A DNA stretch of 15,354 bases. It comes from a virus. Lineage: Duplodnaviria > Heunggongvirae > Uroviricota > Caudoviricetes. The position numbers and the translations under genes are program-made. The notes under the pieces were generated by a model. That model was not told where the DNA came from. It did not search any database and saw only the letters and a program-made list of their open reading frames with translations. The DNA is taken from the IMG/VR virus record IMGVR_UViG_2563366828_000009; one strand, written 5' to 3'. The number at the start of each line of letters is the position of its first letter. The stretch's first letter is position 1. Below are positions 1,659 through 14,083 of the stretch, piece by piece.

Positions 1659-4130
1659 TTAAGAATCAGCCTGACTCGGGATCAGTTTTTGCCAGATAAC
1701 TGAAACGTATTTTGCCTGGTAACGGGCGTCATCAAGTGCATTATGGCGCTCACCTTCGAATTGAATAGCCGTTCTGGCATCGAAGTCTATGGCTTTCCCC
1801 AGCTCAACGATTGTGCGTACATCGCGATCGTTGTAGTAACGCCACGGGCAGGGGATCCCCTGCCGTTCGTATGAACGGCGCAAAATCGTGTTGTCGAAGT
1901 TGGCTCCATTTCCCCAGACCTGAACAAAAAATTCACCGGAGTTTTCGTCGATAAATTCCCGCAATTGTAACAGTGCATCATCTAACGGGATTTCATCGGT
2001 CATAATGGCAGATTGCGCTTCGCGTGATTGCTTAAACCACCATTTAATGGTGTCCCGATCAATGACTCCGCCAGCAGTTTCCAGATCGATAGTCTTAATA
2101 AATTCCGGTCCCATATCTCCGGTTTGCGGATCGAAAAATATTGCACCTATTGAGATGATCGGGGCATCAGGATTTTTTCCCATGGTTTCAAGGTCGATCA
2201 TTAGATGGTCACACGTCCTGCTGGTGGATGTGATTTCGTGATGACCGTTCACCTTAATTGAGTGATCTGCCGTCTCGCCAGTTTCATTATCGCTATCGTG
2301 ATGCTGATTGCCGCCAGTGTTCTCCTTGTGTGGATGTTCAGCGCCTTCCATTTTCTCCGGATCATCTTCCTGAACTTCAACCTGATACTCTTCATCGAAT
2401 GTTTCCTGGTATGTTGCGTCGCCCATTACCGCGCCACAATCAGGGCAGTTGCCGCCGCCGGTCTGACCGCAGGCGGTGCAGACTTTTTCCACTTCCTGTT
2501 GCGCCACTGATTCAGGCTGTTTCGTTTCTGGCTCGTTTTGTAACGCATTTGGGCTGTTTTGTTCCGCTTTTTGGTAGTTCCGTTCCGATTCATGCTGGTT
2601 CTGGTTCACAGAATCGCGGGTCTGGATCCCCTTAACCCATTTCGGATCATTCGGGTCACTAATCCCTTCAACAAATTCACCACGTGATGCAGCAAGCAAC
2701 TTATCGGCGTCAGGCTGGATGATATTGGCTGCCTGCATAATTTTGTTTACTTCGTCAGCGGTAACTTTTATCGGCTCTGGTTGTTCTGAATCTTCAGCGG
2801 TATCTACATTTTGCGGTAAGCCCGTGTATGTGCCATTTTTTCGGGCAAAATATTCTTCTTTTGTGATTTCAGTGGCGCCAGCAGCCAGTGCCTTATCCAG
2901 ACCAGAAAGTTTGTTTGCGCGACCGTATTTTTCTCCGTCCTTATCTGCGAAGAGGAAATAGAACGGCCCCTCACGCTCTACAGATGGTTCAGCTTCCGGC
3001 GCGGTTTCATTTTTTGGGATATCAGATACCTCAGTTTCCACTGCATCAGTTTGTGTTTCTGATGACTGGAGAACATCAACAGTGCCCAGGTCTGTTTCTT
3101 CATTCTCAAACACGCCCTTTGTCGTCAGGTATTCGCAGATATATTTGTTCAGTGCTACGGGATCTTTGTGAATGTCGATCGGACGTTCACGGACAAGGCC
3201 AAAAATAGTTTGGCGGTCGTAGCGAAGGGCATCAGGCTGTTTGCGCATTGATGCCGAGATACGCTTCCAGTCTTCGCGGTCGTTATCGATAACTTCATTT
3301 TTTGCCCAGCGATGGATGCTGCCGTCAATGTTTCCGGCATCCACATCACCAGGCCAGAGAGCGTAGGCCAGTTCGTCATCCAGTGTTTTCCATGTCTGCT
3401 TGTATTCGCGATGAATGGCAGCAATGACCGGGCTGATTTTTCCTGTTGAATTTTCAGTGTACTGTTGATTGGCTCTGGCGCGGGCGAGATCAACAACAGA
3501 CGTGTATTTTCCGGTTTCCTTGCGTTCACCTTCGCGACGTTTTTTCCAGATGCGCATCTCTGCCTGAATTTCGGGCCATTTAGCACCAGGAATACATTTA
3601 TGCTTAACCCACCCAATGGCGTGCAACTTAAGCTCCGGATACATGGCGTTAACTTCTGGCATTTTCATCAACGCTTCAACGATATGTCCGTCGAATGTTG
3701 CCATGTCTTCCTGCAACAATTCCTGTGCGCTAATAACCATATCAACGGTGATGTTTTCACATGTGTCGAACTTAACCATGACAGCGTTCTGTACTTCAGG
3801 GGCCAGCTTGTCAAAAGTGACGTTCATCGGATCGGATTCAGTCTCAACCGGGACAAAAGAAGCAGACTCCTCATCCCAGCGGTTTTCCTGCATATATTCA
3901 GCATCCCATGAATCGAGGGCAGGGCGGGGTATGCCAGGTTTATCCTCGCAGACAATAAATTTATAAGCGCAGTCCTGAGCAGCCGGATAATGTTCCAGGA
4001 ATTGCCAGTGAAATTTTGCTCGAGCACGGCGTTCGTCGCCAGCTTCAATGGCTGTGGCTACAGCCACAGCGCCTTCTTCCCTTGTTGCCAGTTCGTCAGG
4101 AATAGCGGCGCAAATAAAGACTTTACTCAT
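1659..4130 (-). CDS. RecE-like exodeoxyribonuclease VIII-family prophage protein with C-terminal DnaQ-like (DEDDh-type) exonuclease domain
   Basis: 823-aa ORF. C-terminal ~180 aa carry three motifs typical of DEDDh 3'-5' exonucleases: DHLMIDLETMG, VWGNGANFDNTIL and HNALDDARYQAKY. The middle region has acidic low-complexity stretches and a CTACGQTGGGNCPDCG zinc-ribbon-like motif, as I recall for RecE-type proteins. Position (between xis and the dicB operon) is where lambdoid exo/recE genes sit. Confidence 0.75.
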   Translation of the reverse strand: MSKVFICAAIPDELATREEGAVAVATAIEAGDERRARAKFHWQFLEHYPAAQDCAYKFIVCEDKPGIPRPALDSWDAEYMQENRWDEESASFVPVETESDPMNVTFDKLAPEVQNAVMVKFDTCENITVDMVISAQELLQEDMATFDGHIVEALMKMPEVNAMYPELKLHAIGWVKHKCIPGAKWPEIQAEMRIWKKRREGERKETGKYTSVVDLARARANQQYTENSTGKISPVIAAIHREYKQTWKTLDDELAYALWPGDVDAGNIDGSIHRWAKNEVIDNDREDWKRISASMRKQPDALRYDRQTIFGLVRERPIDIHKDPVALNKYICEYLTTKGVFENEETDLGTVDVLQSSETQTDAVETEVSDIPKNETAPEAEPSVEREGPFYFLFADKDGEKYGRANKLSGLDKALAAGATEITKEEYFARKNGTYTGLPQNVDTAEDSEQPEPIKVTADEVNKIMQAANIIQPDADKLLAASRGEFVEGISDPNDPKWVKGIQTRDSVNQNQHESERNYQKAEQNSPNALQNEPETKQPESVAQQEVEKVCTACGQTGGGNCPDCGAVMGDATYQETFDEEYQVEVQEDDPEKMEGAEHPHKENTGGNQHHDSDNETGETADHSIKVNGHHEITSTSRTCDHLMIDLETMGKNPDAPIISIGAIFFDPQTGDMGPEFIKTIDLETAGGVIDRDTIKWWFKQSREAQSAIMTDEIPLDDALLQLREFIDENSGEFFVQVWGNGANFDNTILRRSYERQGIPCPWRYYNDRDVRTIVELGKAIDFDARTAIQFEGERHNALDDARYQAKYVSVIWQKLIPSQADS

Positions 4131-4767: not shown

Positions 4768-4826
4768 TTAAAAACGGCGGCAGAGCAGTCACGGAGTAAA
4801 ACTGATACCGCCAAACGTCACCAGAA
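4768..4826 (-). ncRNA. dicF: DicF small regulatory RNA (Hfq-dependent sRNA of the dicB operon; targets ftsZ and other mRNAs)
   Basis: Reverse complement of 4767-4826 reads TTTCTGGTGACGTTTGGCGGTATCAGTTTTACTCCGTGACTGCTCTGCCGCCGTTTTTAAA, matching the DicF sequence I recall, including the 3' GC stem (GGCGG...CCGCC) and U-tract. Located between the ydfB/C-like region and dicB. Confidence 0.75.
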
Positions 4827-6440: not shown

Positions 6441-6470
6441 TTGACTTGAGATTCCTTGAGTGATTAGCAT
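6441..6470 (+). promoter_or_regulatory. candidate rightward promoter for the cro-like gene
   Basis: TTGACT (6441-6446), 18-bp spacer, TAGCAT (6465-6470). The operator inverted repeat overlaps the -10 and start region; GGAGG RBS at 6489 and ATG at 6497 follow. Confidence 0.35.
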
Positions 6471-6483
6471 TGAGAAAACTCAA
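6470..6483. promoter_or_regulatory. candidate repressor operator (copy A) between divergent repressor and cro-like genes
   Basis: Inverted repeat TTGAG-AAAA-CTCAA; its 13-bp core is identical to 5935-5947. Confidence 0.45.
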
Positions 6484-6496
6484 TACTGGAGGTGCG

Positions 6497-6724
6497 ATGT
6501 TTAAATCAGACGTAATTAATTTTTACGGTACGAAAGCCAAAGTAGCGAAAGCTGCTGGCGTTGACCCATCTGCTGTTTCTCAATGGCAAGAGCTGGTTCC
6601 TGAAGGTCGCGCGATGCGTCTACAGGAGGCATCTGGCGGCGAGCTTCTGTATGATCCCAAGGTTTATGACGAATATCGTAAGACGAAGCGGGCGGGGCGG
6701 TTGAACAATGAAAATCACTCCTGA
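6497..6724 (+). CDS. dicC: DicC-like Cro-type regulator
   Basis: 75-aa product from the ATG at 6497 with a GGAGG RBS (MFKSDVINFYGTKAKVAKAAGVDPSAVSQWQ...). Helix-turn-helix region typical of Cro/YdaS-like proteins; divergent from the repressor. Confidence 0.8.
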   Translation: MFKSDVINFYGTKAKVAKAAGVDPSAVSQWQELVPEGRAMRLQEASGGELLYDPKVYDEYRKTKRAGRLNNENHS

Positions 6725-7229
6725 ACAGGCTCGTGAGGCTCTGGATGCCTGGATATGTCGACCAGGAATGACACAGGAGCAGGCGACGATATTAATCACT
6801 GAAGCATTCTGGGCTTTGAAAGAGCGCCCGAACATCGATGTTCAGCGTGTCACAGATGAAGGTGGCGCGGTTGATCAGCGAGCGCTTGGCGTTAATCGAG
6901 TGAAGATATTCGAACGCTGGAAGGCTATCGACACCAGGGATAAGCGTGAAAAGTTCACGGCGCTAGTGCCTGCAATTATGGAGGCTATCCGGATTAATGA
7001 TTTCAGGTTGTATCGTGAAATTAGTGACGGAAAAAGCATCACGTACATGATCGCCGGGTTAAACAAAGAATATGGCGATGTGGTGGAGTCCGGACTGCTT
7101 TTTGCTGATCCTGCCGTAGTGGATCGTGAAACTGACGAACTTATAGAAAAAGCAATTGCTTTCAAACTTGCGTATCGACAGCAATACCAACAAAAAGCTG
7201 GATGGAATTATGAGCCTTCTTTTTGCTGA
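6708..7229 (+). CDS. hypothetical early-operon protein in the cII position (possible YdaT-like regulator)
   Basis: 173-aa ORF. Start overlaps the cro-like stop and its end overlaps the start of the O-like gene, suggesting translational coupling within the early right operon. No recognisable catalytic motif; functional call is positional only. Confidence 0.5.
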   Translation: MKITPEQAREALDAWICRPGMTQEQATILITEAFWALKERPNIDVQRVTDEGGAVDQRALGVNRVKIFERWKAIDTRDKREKFTALVPAIMEAIRINDFRLYREISDGKSITYMIAGLNKEYGDVVESGLLFADPAVVDRETDELIEKAIAFKLAYRQQYQQKAGWNYEPSFC

Positions 7230-8215: not shown

Positions 8216-8617
8216 GTGGCAAAAGTTTTTACACAAGAAGAGCGGGAAAAAATTAAAGGGCAGGTGGTGGAACTCGTGCGCCAGAGCGGTCGTGAGACGT
8301 TACGGCAACTGGAAGCTAAAACAGGTGCGACTAGATATCTGATGAGCGTTCTTGCCAGAGAGCTGGTAGCCAGTGGCGATGTATACAACTCCGGCTACGG
8401 GTTATTCCCGTCTGAACAGGCGCGTAAGGACTGGCAAAACGCCCGCAAAAAACTCTCGAGGGCAAAGGTGAAGAAAACAGCTGTGGTTGATCCGGACCTT
8501 ATCTGGTCGTTACCTGATGGAGAAATACGTCGCTACGACAGTCGCCTAAACATAATCTGTCGCGAGTGCCGGATGAGTGAAGTTATGCAGCGCATACTGG
8601 CATTTTATCAGGGATAA
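8216..8617 (+). CDS. hypothetical phage protein (133 aa), possible winged-helix-like N-terminus
   Basis: GTG start at 8216 preceded by a strong AGGGGGA RBS (8203-8209). Follows the O-like gene on the same strand. No recognised motifs. Confidence 0.55.
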   Translation: MAKVFTQEEREKIKGQVVELVRQSGRETLRQLEAKTGATRYLMSVLARELVASGDVYNSGYGLFPSEQARKDWQNARKKLSRAKVKKTAVVDPDLIWSLPDGEIRRYDSRLNIICRECRMSEVMQRILAFYQG

Positions 8618-8835
8618 TGTTAGGTATTTTAGACGTTACTAGATTAAAAAGCATTAGTTCAGGAGTGAATTGACATTCTCATTTTTCATGGCACAGGGTA
8701 GATCTGGCGTGGTTGTCCGCTTTGTGCCAAAAGCGGACATCGAATAATTTCAGCAGCACTCAACCTTATTAACCAAATCGCCTCAACTCATATGGACATG
8801 CATCCGGAAGTGCCAACTTCGTAAACTTATTCACT

Positions 8836-10623
8836 TTAAGTCTGAGCCTCACTCTCTTGGCCATAAGTGGCTTGCCAGTATCTCGCCGTAGGGTTCATTA
8901 GAATGTGCAATACAAGCCACCATGCAAAAATGCAGGGAGGTTGATTGTAGTAACCGGCAGGCACATATCCGTGAGCTAGTTGATTTCGTAAATCACCATA
9001 GATTTTATCTACCAGTAAGGCCTGAAGATTGCCAATTATGTCTACGCCGAAAGCTTCAATAATCAGTGGATTATCTAGTAATCCCTTGAGTCCATTTCGC
9101 TCTTGCGAACCGTCCCCGTGAAGCTGCGATGGTTCCTCACCTTTAATTTTAGCCACATATCTCAGACTATTTTCGATCTGGGGAATCAACACGTGGCATG
9201 CCGTCATAAAATCTCCATTGAAACCGCAAACCATACCCTTGATGAAAAACTCTTCATGCCCAAACGGGATGAAGGGATGATTGATGAACATATCGCGAAA
9301 AAACGCCTCCGAGATTGGATATTTCATTGTGATCTCATCTGTAGCAGGAATAATTTGCCCAGCTACTGCCAACTCATGGTCGATACGCATTCTCGTCATC
9401 ATTATGGGCCAAATAACTGCCCCATTTGCATCATCAATCCCCAATCCTGCGGGTATGCGAGCAAGTGTCATTCCCTCATGATCAATATGTGTTGATCCAA
9501 ACATCCAAGCTATGCTGTTGGCCTTTTGTTCTATTGCTTGAGCCTTAAGTCTCTCAATGCTGGTTGGCCGACAGACCAGCATCGCAAGTCTGAAAACCAT
9601 ATCAAACATATCTCTTCCGACTACCCGACTCTTGGCTTGATGGACAATCTCACTAATATCTTGAGGGGGAGACTGAAGGATAGACATCTGGTGACGGGAT
9701 TCGATTTGGTAATCACGCATTTCTTCATACAGCGCAAGACGTTCTATTCGGGTTCCTGGAATATTAGCCAGTGCTTCAATAGCATTCTGCATGCAGGCTG
9801 CCGAAATCATACCGCCATCTTGGAATTTTGACTCTTCCAGATGTGTATCGGCAAGAAGCCGCCAGAATTCAAACTGTGTATCTCTGTCACAGCACCTATT
9901 CGCAATCGTGATTGCGGTTTTACAGGCATCGACGGCAAATGAAAATAATTTTTGAGCCAGATAGTTTTTTGTCAGAAACAGGAGTTCCTGGGCAATAAAA
10001 GATGGCTCACTCACTTTACAGTCGATATCGAGTTGCAGGAGTCGCAGCGGATAAGGTGAATCGCCTTGTTCTCTGGTACGTTCATACTCTGCTAGTAGAT
10101 GTGCCGAAAGCTGATCAAATTCATCCCTGAAATCAGTATTCTTTCGAAAAAAACAACACAGCCTAAGCGCACGCTCTAGGCGTTCTAAAGCACTAACCCA
10201 CGTCCCTTGCGATGTCATAATAGCTATACTGGACGCATAATAAGCACGGACTGCCAGCAAAGGAAAACGGATTCCACCAATTTTACGAACCCAAAGTGTA
10301 TCAGCAATACGAGCTTGAAGTTCGGGTAGCTCTATCGTCGGGCAAAATTGAGAAAGTACCTCCAGCGACAACCCGTTAATGTCATCCGGAATTGCAGATC
10401 TACCTTGGCTGCTTTGAAAGCACGGACCAAATGGTACCTGTGGATTTTCGGGACGAAAGTGAAAACCGCAAATATGGGTTAGCAGTCTTATCTCCGCTCT
10501 TCCATCACCTAGGCTAGAAAGATACTTTGTGATATCAAAGCAGGTAACTGGCAGCTTACTCTGGATTAAGGGGGATAAATCAATAGTGTTAAGTTCGTCG
10601 AGGCTGATATTAATATCGTCCAT
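8836..10623 (-). CDS. large orphan protein (595 aa) with C-terminal HEPN-like R-x4-H motif; candidate abortive-infection / anti-phage effector
   Basis: Long uninterrupted ORF on the strand opposite all flanking phage genes. ATG at 10623 has an AAGGTGA RBS. No Walker A/P-loop visible. C-terminal DLRNQLAHG (codons 8971-8988) fits the HEPN RNase signature R-[N/Q/H]-x3-H. Flanks are AT-rich non-coding DNA (8618-8835 and 10624-10990). Confidence 0.75.
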   Translation of the reverse strand: MDDINISLDELNTIDLSPLIQSKLPVTCFDITKYLSSLGDGRAEIRLLTHICGFHFRPENPQVPFGPCFQSSQGRSAIPDDINGLSLEVLSQFCPTIELPELQARIADTLWVRKIGGIRFPLLAVRAYYASSIAIMTSQGTWVSALERLERALRLCCFFRKNTDFRDEFDQLSAHLLAEYERTREQGDSPYPLRLLQLDIDCKVSEPSFIAQELLFLTKNYLAQKLFSFAVDACKTAITIANRCCDRDTQFEFWRLLADTHLEESKFQDGGMISAACMQNAIEALANIPGTRIERLALYEEMRDYQIESRHQMSILQSPPQDISEIVHQAKSRVVGRDMFDMVFRLAMLVCRPTSIERLKAQAIEQKANSIAWMFGSTHIDHEGMTLARIPAGLGIDDANGAVIWPIMMTRMRIDHELAVAGQIIPATDEITMKYPISEAFFRDMFINHPFIPFGHEEFFIKGMVCGFNGDFMTACHVLIPQIENSLRYVAKIKGEEPSQLHGDGSQERNGLKGLLDNPLIIEAFGVDIIGNLQALLVDKIYGDLRNQLAHGYVPAGYYNQPPCIFAWWLVLHILMNPTARYWQATYGQESEAQT

Positions 10624-10996
10624 GTCGTCACCTTGATGATTTGTTAATGCGGGGGCAACATTAATAAATGTACTTGAGACCGCAATTTGTCGATGGAGCC
10701 AACATTTATAACTATGTGCTTCTACCCTCTGAATTTTTACATGTGAATTGCTAGCTTGAATAGCTCTATCATTATATACGTGGCACTAAATTATGGCTGT
10801 TTTTCGCTCAAAGCGGACTAGAAGGTTAGCTTGTGTCGGACTTTGCGTATTAAAAGAAGTGCTGGTGGTGACTAGTGGTTGTGCCCCATTTCCACAGAAA
10901 AAATCAGAGAAACTATACCCAATAGTTGTATTGAATCACTGACGAGACAGCCTCATATTCATCAGGACTGGTCTACGTCCAATACAGGAGGTTGTG

Positions 10997-11086
10997 GTGC
11001 TGGTTCTCAAATGTGCGCTGGCTATTACGGCTGTAATGGCGATTTATTGTCTTGCTATTGTTCTTATGGATCGCCTTTCTGACTGA
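10997..11086 (+). CDS. possible small hydrophobic peptide (29 aa, VLVLKCALAITAVMAIYCLAIVLMDRLSD)
   Basis: Consensus AGGAGG at 10986-10991, 5 nt before a GTG at 10997. One predicted transmembrane helix plus a charged tail, the architecture of type I toxins and small phage membrane peptides. Frame differs from the 67-aa ORF in the track, which starts at a TTG with no RBS. Confidence 0.3.
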   Translation: MLVLKCALAITAVMAIYCLAIVLMDRLSD

Positions 11087-11297
11087 TTTCATATTGGCGA
11101 GGTAACGGTAGTTAAGTAGAATGGCTGCGGGTGCTTGAGGCTATCTGCCTCGGGCATGAACACCAAAGGCAGATAGAGAAAAGCCCCAGTTAACATTACG
11201 CGTCCTGCAAGACGCTTAACATTAATCTGAGGCCAATTTCATGCTAGACACATGTAGGTTAGCCTCTTACGAGCCGAAAGGCAAGGAGAAGCAGGCT

Positions 11298-11453
11298 ATG
11301 AAGCAGCAAAAGGCGATGTTAATCGCCCTGATCGTCATCTGTTTAACCGTCATAGTGACGGCACTGGTAACGAGGAAAGACCTCTGCGAGGTACGAATCC
11401 GAACCGGCCAGACGGAGGTCGCTGTCTTCACAGCTTACGAACCTGAGGAGTAA
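11298..11453 (+). CDS. hokD: Hok-family type I toxin HokD (RelF)
   Basis: 51-aa product MKQQKAMLIALIVICLTVIVTALVTRKDLCEVRIRTGQTEVAVFTAYEPEE; AAGGAGAA RBS 7 nt upstream. Structured leader with a CTATCTGCC...GGCAGATAG hairpin, and 3' fold-back hairpins plus terminator, as expected for hok mRNAs. Confidence 0.85.
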   Translation: MKQQKAMLIALIVICLTVIVTALVTRKDLCEVRIRTGQTEVAVFTAYEPEE

Positions 11454-13330: not shown

Positions 13331-14083
13331 ATGAACCTTGAAGCCTTACCAAAATATTACTCCCCAAAATCTCCAAAATTGAGCGATGACGCTCCAGCGA
13401 CAGGCACCGGTTGTTTAACAATTACGGATGTAATGGCAGCGCAGGGGATGGTGCAGTCGAAAGCACCACTTGGGTTGGCCTTATTTCTGGCAAAAGTTGG
13501 TGTTCAGGACCCTCAGTTTGCGATTGAAGGCCTGCTAAATTACGCGATGGCACTGGATAACCCGACATTGAACAAATTGAGTGAAGAAATCCGGTTACAG
13601 ATTATTCCTTACCTTGTGAATTTTGCCTTTGCTGATTACTCCAGGTCTGCGGCAAGTAAGGCTCGCTGTGAGCATTGTTCAGGTACGGGATTTTATAATG
13701 TATTGCGCGAAGTGGTGAAACACTACAGACGCGGGGAATCTGTAATCAAGGAAGAATGGGTGAAGGAACTATGTCAGCATTGCCATGGTAAGGGCGAAGT
13801 CAGCACAGCGTGCAGAGGGTGTAAGGGTAAAGGGATTGTTCTGGATGAAAAAAGAACCCGGTTTCATGGCGTACCGGTATATAAGATTTGTGGGCGTTGT
13901 AATGGAAACCGATTTAGTCGTTTACCGACCACGCTGGCACGACGTCATGTCCAGAAGCTGGTACCAGACCTGACCGATTATCAGTGGTATAAGGGGTATG
14001 CGGACGTCATTGATAAACTGGTAACAAAGTGCTGGCAGGAAGAAGCATACGCGGAAGCGCAATTGAGGAAGGTGACGAGATAA
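13331..14083 (+). CDS. quuQ: late-gene antitermination protein Q (QuuQ-like)
   Basis: 250-aa ORF with Cys-rich zinc-binding motifs (CEHCSGTG, CQHCHGKG, CRGCKGKG, CGRCNG). Followed within 150 bp by a promoter-like element and a strong intrinsic terminator, the classic Q-PR'-tR' arrangement. Confidence 0.8.
   Translation: MNLEALPKYYSPKSPKLSDDAPATGTGCLTITDVMAAQGMVQSKAPLGLALFLAKVGVQDPQFAIEGLLNYAMALDNPTLNKLSEEIRLQIIPYLVNFAFADYSRSAASKARCEHCSGTGFYNVLREVVKHYRRGESVIKEEWVKELCQHCHGKGEVSTACRGCKGKGIVLDEKRTRFHGVPVYKICGRCNGNRFSRLPTTLARRHVQKLVPDLTDYQWYKGYADVIDKLVTKCWQEEAYAEAQLRKVTR

Follow-up and report, generated by a model that had tools for sequence, protein, structure and literature searches.

A DUF4209 protein in a swappable cargo slot of a Qin-like Escherichia coli prophage is a candidate single-protein HEPN-ribonuclease defence system

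The viral DNA record IMGVR_UViG_2563366828_000009, a stretch of 15,354 nucleotides (nt) referred to here as the window, raises the question of what a long reverse-strand gene is doing in the middle of a forward-strand phage gene array. The gene, at 8836..10623 (-), begins with ATG and encodes a protein of 595 amino acids (aa) followed by a stop codon. All the phage genes from cro to Q in its vicinity lie on the + strand, as an original prediction made from the sequence had stated and the map of open reading frames (ORFs) bears out. Many E. coli chromosomes match the window at 100% identity; in E. coli strain 118UI it corresponds to a Qin-like lambdoid prophage inserted beside rspB, and there the gene is annotated in RefSeq as 'DUF4209 domain-containing protein' (WP_000340970.1). 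We conclude that the gene forms an accessory ('moron') cassette of this prophage that is complete in itself, and we put at roughly 0.55 the probability that its product is a single-protein HEPN-ribonuclease (RNase) abortive-infection or defence system. The candidacy follows from the variability of the slot that the gene occupies, the presence of relatives in phage cargo hotspots, the conservation of residues of catalytic type, and the predictions of PADLOC and DefensePredictor. The original prediction had likewise put forward a single-protein defence candidate; the PADLOC candidate family PDC-S39, the P2 hotspot listings and DefensePredictor agree with it.

The protein had been taken for an orphan without a family, and this did not hold. 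Pfam DUF7380 was matched at aa 4-166 (10126..10614 (-); expectation value (E) 2.1e-34, 119.3 bits, cut-off 27) and Pfam DUF4209 at aa 484-573 (E 3.2e-8, 34 bits, cut-off 22.3). The PADLOC model PDC-S39 was matched with an E of 8.4e-103 and 343 bits, protein residues 43-581 being aligned with model positions 54-602 of 615. This candidate was the sole match in PADLOC-DB v2.0.0, where none of the models of validated defence systems was matched. No NCBIfam family was found for the protein, and the two PHROGs families that it matches are both of unknown function. Homologs of about 600 aa with DUF7380 and DUF4209 occur across the Gammaproteobacteria and Cyanobacteria. A profile of the C-terminal 200 aa found 5,454 clusters at 50% identity with an E of 1e-3 or less, 1,770 of them with an E of 1e-30 or less; among the matches listed, nearly all were about 600 aa long with the domain at the C-terminus, and the median representative was 602 aa long, the domain lying at approximately residues 400-600.

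The DUF4209 family is one that is already annotated, placed in the HEPN superfamily, modelled in PADLOC as PDC-S39, and present in the P2 hotspot lists and in DefensePredictor. The PDC candidates come from genes located inside BREX, DISARM or type I restriction-modification (RM) loci and are explicitly untested. DefensePredictor (Science 2026) gives the E. coli DUF4209 protein WP_021514655.1 (595 aa) a log-odds score of 4.3 and a 602-aa E. coli DUF4209 paralog, WP_000710784.1, a score of 7.4, and labels each a 'predicted novel defense gene'. Both accessions and the DUF4209 name are absent from its tables of cloned transcription units and validated systems (Tables S6 and S8). In the full-text literature DUF4209 was found only in the 2013 HEPN paper and PDC-S39 only in two genome surveys, and searches with WP_000340970, ORF612 and P2-EC46 returned only unrelated papers. 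DUF4209 is also absent from the supplements of a language-model defence paper, and the tests in the P2/P4 'shuttling' paper were made on P4 candidates only. The family has been flagged by four independent computational approaches, namely the HEPN census, the PDC guilt-by-embedding procedure, the P2 hotspot catalogue and DefensePredictor.

An AlphaFold2 model of the protein was built with an alignment of 52 sequences, in which the homologs reach down to 24% identity, and has a mean predicted local distance difference test score (pLDDT) of 90. It has three parts: an alpha/beta cap (aa 1-95), a stack of helical hairpins (approximately aa 100-370) and a helical C-terminal region (approximately aa 400-595). 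The DUF7380 region comprises the cap and the first helices of the stack and varies more than any other part of the protein. The stack, encoded at 9514..10326 (-), is an alpha-solenoid whose fold is similar to that of TPR solenoids in a fold search with the model. No Pfam TPR family was matched up to an E of 1, and sequence matches in the PDB were marginal (E 0.03-0.5); because the TPR sequence models were unmatched, we call the solenoid 'TPR-like' and do not count it as a member of a TPR family. Mean identity to homologs is 52% in the HEPN core and 23% in the N-terminal cap, and a conserved C-terminal core with a variable N-terminus is the usual pattern of conserved effector and variable sensor. 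The N-terminal region had earlier been suggested as a sensor or regulator. That suggestion has gained substance in the variable cap and the TPR-like solenoid; the sensing role itself is plausible.

The C-terminal helical domain (aa 457-595; 8839..9255 (-)), which includes DUF4209, is a predicted HEPN RNase. Anantharaman et al. 2013 define HEPN by the motif R-x4-6-H, with a polar residue (N, D or H) after the R, and by a second conserved acidic residue further upstream, typically within E-x3-[KR] in helix 2. In our model, helix 457-468 is followed by helix 472-493 with the E-x3-R motif, an insert of a beta-hairpin and short helices, helix 527-551, which ends with R-x4-H, a loop, and helix 562-594. 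The first motif, E484-N-S-L-R488, is encoded at 9160..9174 (-); the second, R546-N-Q-L-A-H551, with the polar N after the R, is encoded at 8971..8988 (-) and is predicted to be catalytic. Both motifs and the positions of the helices fit the published HEPN definition. The residues invariant in the 52 sequences are Q306, G384, G463, L479, Q482, E484, S486, R488, R546, H551, G552 and W569, and N547 is conserved in at least 90%. When 146 representatives at 50% identity were examined, Q-x-E-x3-[KR] followed by R-x4-H-G was intact in 142, and the residue after the motif R was N in 125, H in 14 and D in 2. The original prediction had read DLRNQLAHG, residues 544-552, as a HEPN active-site signature in a protein with no P-loop. 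R546 and H551 are indeed present and strictly conserved, and no Walker A (P-loop) motif was found in the protein. Anantharaman et al. 2013 equate DUF4209 with the C6orf70 family, which they assign to the HEPN superfamily and whose bacterial members are TPR-fused and found in operons related to RM systems.

Structure comparison, which had been proposed as a check for a HEPN fold, did not provide one. Fold searches with the predicted models retrieved no HEPN structure, and Foldseek against the PDB with the model of the C-terminal 200 aa (pLDDT 90.5) gave nothing significant (best E 1.9). Searches of the PDB sequences by phmmer and hmmsearch, using the protein and two profiles, gave no relative whose structure has been solved. 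When 19 C-terminal domains were scanned permissively with Pfam and PADLOC, only DUF4209 and PDC-S39 were matched, with no bridge to other HEPN families. The C-terminal profile was also aligned by hhalign with a single RiboL-PSP-HEPN sequence, and the resulting 0.3% probability is, with one sequence, uninformative. Since no solved HEPN structure was retrieved, the assignment rests on the motifs, the helix order and the literature, the last consisting of Anantharaman et al. 2013 and the HHblits analysis tabulated by DefensePredictor, in which the C-terminal HEPN domain of AbiJ is the nearest remote match of E. coli DUF4209 proteins, at only 65-73% probability. The domain might instead have some other helical fold, or be a HEPN-like domain that acts by binding only. 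We consider this quite unlikely, as E-x3-R and R-N-x3-H-G are invariant even in very distant members, and the residue that follows the R shows the preference for polar ones described in the literature. The order of the helices and the place of the insert also agree with the HEPN description, and published profile analyses assign the family to HEPN. The C-terminal domain is probably an active HEPN RNase.

The proposal that the gene is accessory cargo could be examined by comparison of Qin-like prophages, and this comparison upheld it. Homology of the window with the sister prophages L009 and L010 ends at 8738-8740 and resumes at 10797-10803; because of these breaks, a variable cargo cassette of about 2.05 kb is placed at approximately 8741..10796. 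Apart from the 595-aa gene it contains only 95 bp beyond the stop codon and 173 bp ahead of the gene, the latter with a TATAAT sequence; no ORF was found between the stop codon and a hairpin at the left border. Sister prophages that have the same DUF977 gene (8216-8617 (+) in the window) and hokD (11298-11453 (+)) hold other cargo between them: genes for a LysE translocator and a DUF1989 protein in L009 (5076-6382), a gene annotated 'chaperonin' in L010 (5070-5879), and QueH in L011 (5100-5765). In the K-12 Qin prophage, at the same rspB site, flxA, ydfV and relBE lie between the replication remnants and hokD. K-12 Qin loses its homology to the window at 6987 and regains it at 11284, relBE replacing the region upstream of hokD, and the 595-aa gene is absent from K-12. 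The DUF977-hokD slot is a general moron site and no dedicated defence hotspot. hokD and sok belong to the conserved prophage backbone outside the cassette, and hokD was accordingly rejected as part of a common islet with the 595-aa gene. The 'defence/toxin islet' of the original prediction is too strong a term, because hokD/sok are backbone and some other occupants of the slot, LysE and QueH among them, do not look like defence genes.

Among 5,426 complete E. coli genomes, the 595-aa gene was found in 152 (2.8%), in all cases on the chromosome and with at least 99% identity; the DUF977 flank was found in 4,006 E. coli genomes. In a few E. coli genomes the gene is split by the insertion sequence (IS) elements IS4 or IS3/IS1203, or is cut short, leaving a DUF7380 protein as the only annotation (H1, NZ_CP070048.1; H66, NZ_CP025842.1; H73, NZ_CM143724.1; H75; H76). 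Truncated forms of 335-369 aa and of 553 aa are also common in the protein collection. The interrupted and truncated copies might reflect a cost of carriage or simple decay.

Relatives of the protein were found in several kinds of location. P2-like phages carry relatives of about 23% identity between gpA and gpQ, in the tin/old hotspot. Two of these, P2-EC46 ORF612 and the protein of vB_EcoM-569R9, are full-length matches to PDC-S39 (E 7e-85 and 2e-67), and the hotspot proteins keep QxExxx[KR] and RxxxxHG; Rousset et al. 2022 list them as entries 13 (n=193) and 55 (n=76) in a supplementary table of systems. They resemble the 595-aa protein in matching the PDC-S39 model, in their motifs, in their length of about 600 aa and in standing alone, but differ in sequence and in location, the gene of the window being in a lambdoid Qin-like slot between replication genes and hokD. 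A prophage of Enterobacter kobei has a homolog of 39% identity between Q and holin, a moron site, and in Citrobacter a homolog of 81% identity lies at a prophage end, adjoining umuD-like and dinI genes. In Vibrio cholerae and Aeromonas the homolog and one further gene form an islet surrounded by housekeeping genes. The Pseudomonas homolog is near a HigA-like gene (L008 5977-6312), that of Shewanella adjoins a gene for a Schlafen AlbA_2 protein (L018 11358-12419), and a cyanobacterial homolog has its stop codon overlapped by a PIN-domain gene (L019 10926-11348). These PIN, Schlafen AlbA_2 and HigA-like neighbours have the flavour of conflict systems and are not conserved. A conserved partner gene was considered and rejected, the 160-aa ORFs downstream in Vibrio and Aeromonas being unrelated to each other. 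In the contexts compared, no conserved neighbour or cognate antitoxin was found beside family members, and the neighbours are mutually unrelated. The PDC-S39/DUF4209 protein is therefore the product of a single gene that stands alone.

Several observations weigh against a role in defence. We found no published experimental test of any member of the PDC-S39/DUF4209 family. The R-x4-H pattern occurs twice in the protein where about 0.9 occurrences are expected by chance from its composition; a count so near to chance is meaningless without conservation data, and the invariance of R546, H551 and G552 in the 52 homologs is, as judged from the aligned sequences, beyond chance. The LysE and DUF1989 genes and QueH occupy the same slot with no evident connection to defence, and several homologs are single genes among housekeeping loci, outside recognisable defence islands. 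These last two points, with the 'chaperonin' and flxA/ydfV cargo, would fit a moron that is not a defence gene. Its product might then promote the fitness of host or prophage, for instance as an RNase in RNA processing or regulation, or as a scaffold of TPR type that acts on host physiology, and the slot would be one open to any useful cargo. For the eukaryotic relatives (C6orf70), in addition, Anantharaman et al. 2013 predict a part in RNA degradation, not in immunity. Such a role seems to us unlikely, since the family recurs in the P2 gpA-gpQ anti-phage hotspot and at moron sites of unrelated prophages, the PDC definition places it in BREX, DISARM or RM loci, its distribution in E. coli is patchy and its N-terminus variable, and machine learning predicts a defence role.

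The K-12 Qin prophage brings another explanation into consideration. There relBE is in the equivalent position, directly upstream of hokD, and hokD/sok adjoins the cassette in the window; relBE and hok/sok encode RNA-directed toxins. The 595-aa protein could likewise be an addiction or toxin module complete in itself, in which an RNase toxin under auto-inhibition stabilises the prophage or the slot and has no anti-phage role, and the IS-interrupted and truncated copies could then mean that the gene is costly to carry. The relBE operon consists of two genes, for toxin and antitoxin, and runs in the same direction as hokD, whereas the window has a single large reverse-strand gene and no antitoxin. 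In the family, however, no cognate antitoxin is conserved, given the unrelated downstream ORFs of Vibrio and Aeromonas and the varying neighbours elsewhere, and 147 of the 152 E. coli matches span at least 80% of the gene. An addiction module is for these reasons very unlikely.

If the protein is a defence system, the following course of events can be proposed. The C-terminal domain would be a metal-independent HEPN RNase, which the cap and the TPR-like solenoid would keep inactive until a phage-derived cue was bound. Binding of the cue would allow two HEPN domains to pair into a composite active site, which would then cleave cellular or phage RNA, or both (tRNA, rRNA or mRNA). Translation would halt and the infection would abort, so that the lysogen population and its resident prophage would be spared from superinfecting phages.

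The anticodon nucleases PrrC and RloC are latent RNases that are unleashed by phage interference. Like these proteins and LA2681, the 595-aa protein appears to combine a HEPN-type RNase with a large sensing or regulatory module, but it has neither a P-loop nor an ABC ATPase and no detectable sequence relationship to them, and the window shows no association with a restriction system. Anantharaman et al. 2013 list LA2681 as a TPR-fused HEPN protein. AbiJ, AbiD/AbiF, ApeA and DS-11 (CBS-HEPN), which act in defence or abortive infection as single proteins, also unite a HEPN domain with a regulatory or sensor part in one polypeptide. The 595-aa protein differs from these in having no significant PADLOC sequence match to them and in its N-terminal module, the DUF7380 cap and TPR-like solenoid; the HHblits link to AbiJ mentioned above extends over only about 20% of the protein. 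For DS-11, which is unrelated to the DUF4209 family, the DefensePredictor paper reports that R330A and H335A constructs abolish defence.

The DUF4209 domain and its conserved Rx4-6H motif are shared with C6orf70/ERMARD, a family that has been traced to the last eukaryotic common ancestor. The eukaryotic proteins are described as having a transmembrane (TM) segment and a localisation in the endoplasmic reticulum, whereas the E. coli protein has no convincing TM segment. No literature that joins ERMARD and HEPN was found. It is a speculative possibility, and one that we hold to be doubtful, that PDC-S39 is a widespread family of single-protein immune sensors, in which cap and solenoid recognise a phage protein and release the HEPN RNase, and that human ERMARD/C6orf70 descends from it. 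Were ERMARD derived from a bacterial immune effector, it would be a further immune module passed from bacteria to eukaryotes, and would acquire its first testable biochemical function. The family is in any case large, recurrent in phage cargo hotspots and possessed of a human relative. The E. coli allele is an easy test case, being a 2.05-kb cassette with its own upstream region that is absent from K-12. Confirmation of defence would make PDC-S39 a validated system and establish a new design of sensor plus HEPN, and refutation would remove a candidate that surveys of defence systems now include as a matter of routine.

The 595-aa protein has a mass of about 68 kDa and is predicted from its sequence to be soluble. 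Its highest 19-residue hydropathy is 1.75, at a place within the helical core. The table of Rousset et al. 2022 lists a C-terminal TM helix for the P2 homologs; such a helix was rejected for the E. coli protein, where the hydrophobic stretch is too short and is the last core helix in the model. The gene has a ribosome binding site of its own, as the original prediction had noted, in the form of the Shine-Dalgarno sequence AAGGTG at 10629..10634 (-), 5 nt ahead of the ATG. The AT-rich flanks also claimed are real but mild: the left and right spacers have G+C contents of 40.8% and 43.8%, only slightly below that of the gene (44.7%), the window as a whole having 46.3%. A perfect TATAAT hexamer at 10771..10776 (-), approximately 150 nt upstream of the ATG and inside the cassette, is possibly the -10 element of a promoter belonging to the gene. 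A consensus promoter scan found no full -35/-10 pair there, and the scans for consensus promoters and terminators gave counts no higher than in shuffled sequence, with nothing at the expected places.

Both borders of the cassette carry a palindromic motif. The last element of the conserved left flank is a hairpin, TGTCCGCTTT-GTGCCA-AAAGCGGACA (8714..8739), with a perfect 10-bp stem, folding energies of -16.7 and -14.7 kcal/mol and z-scores of -3.1 and -3.7. A copy of the same motif at the right border (10793..10818) is degenerate in the window, where its stability is not above that of shuffled sequence, and is better formed in L009 and L010. The 9-mer AAAGCGGAC has three copies in the window, solely at the two borders, where 0.17 are expected; none of 200 shuffles reached three. 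These palindromes could be terminators that bracket the moron or a substrate for recombination in cassette swapping.

The remaining features of the window are those of its prophage setting. On the + strand, cro (6470-6724) is followed by a YdaT-like gene (6708-7229), and Q is at 13331-14083; a 339-aa ORF, rem and ydfU/DUF968 are also + strand genes between cro and Q. A full-length Rfam match to the sok RNA (116 bits) lies at 11129-11303 (+), directly upstream of hokD and overlapping it, and the prophage of the window therefore retains a complete hok/sok module. Between the cassette and sok/hokD, in the conserved flank, is an unannotated ORF of 30 aa, MVLVLKCALAITAVMAIYCLAIVLMDRLSD (10994-11086 (+)), which is strongly hydrophobic and has a GTG start with GGAGG about 7 nt upstream; it may possibly encode a small membrane peptide. 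It had no PADLOC match, and the homology of the L011 prophage to the window begins only at 11064, within this ORF. In the early-left region, 1659-4130 (-) encodes an 823-aa 'exonuclease' with a C-terminal Rv2179c-like 3'-5' exoribonuclease domain (E 1.6e-66) and no Pfam match in its first 640 aa. The DicF small RNA was identified by Rfam (72.5 bits) at 4775-4826 (-), upstream of dicB/ydfD, the same arrangement as in K-12 Qin.

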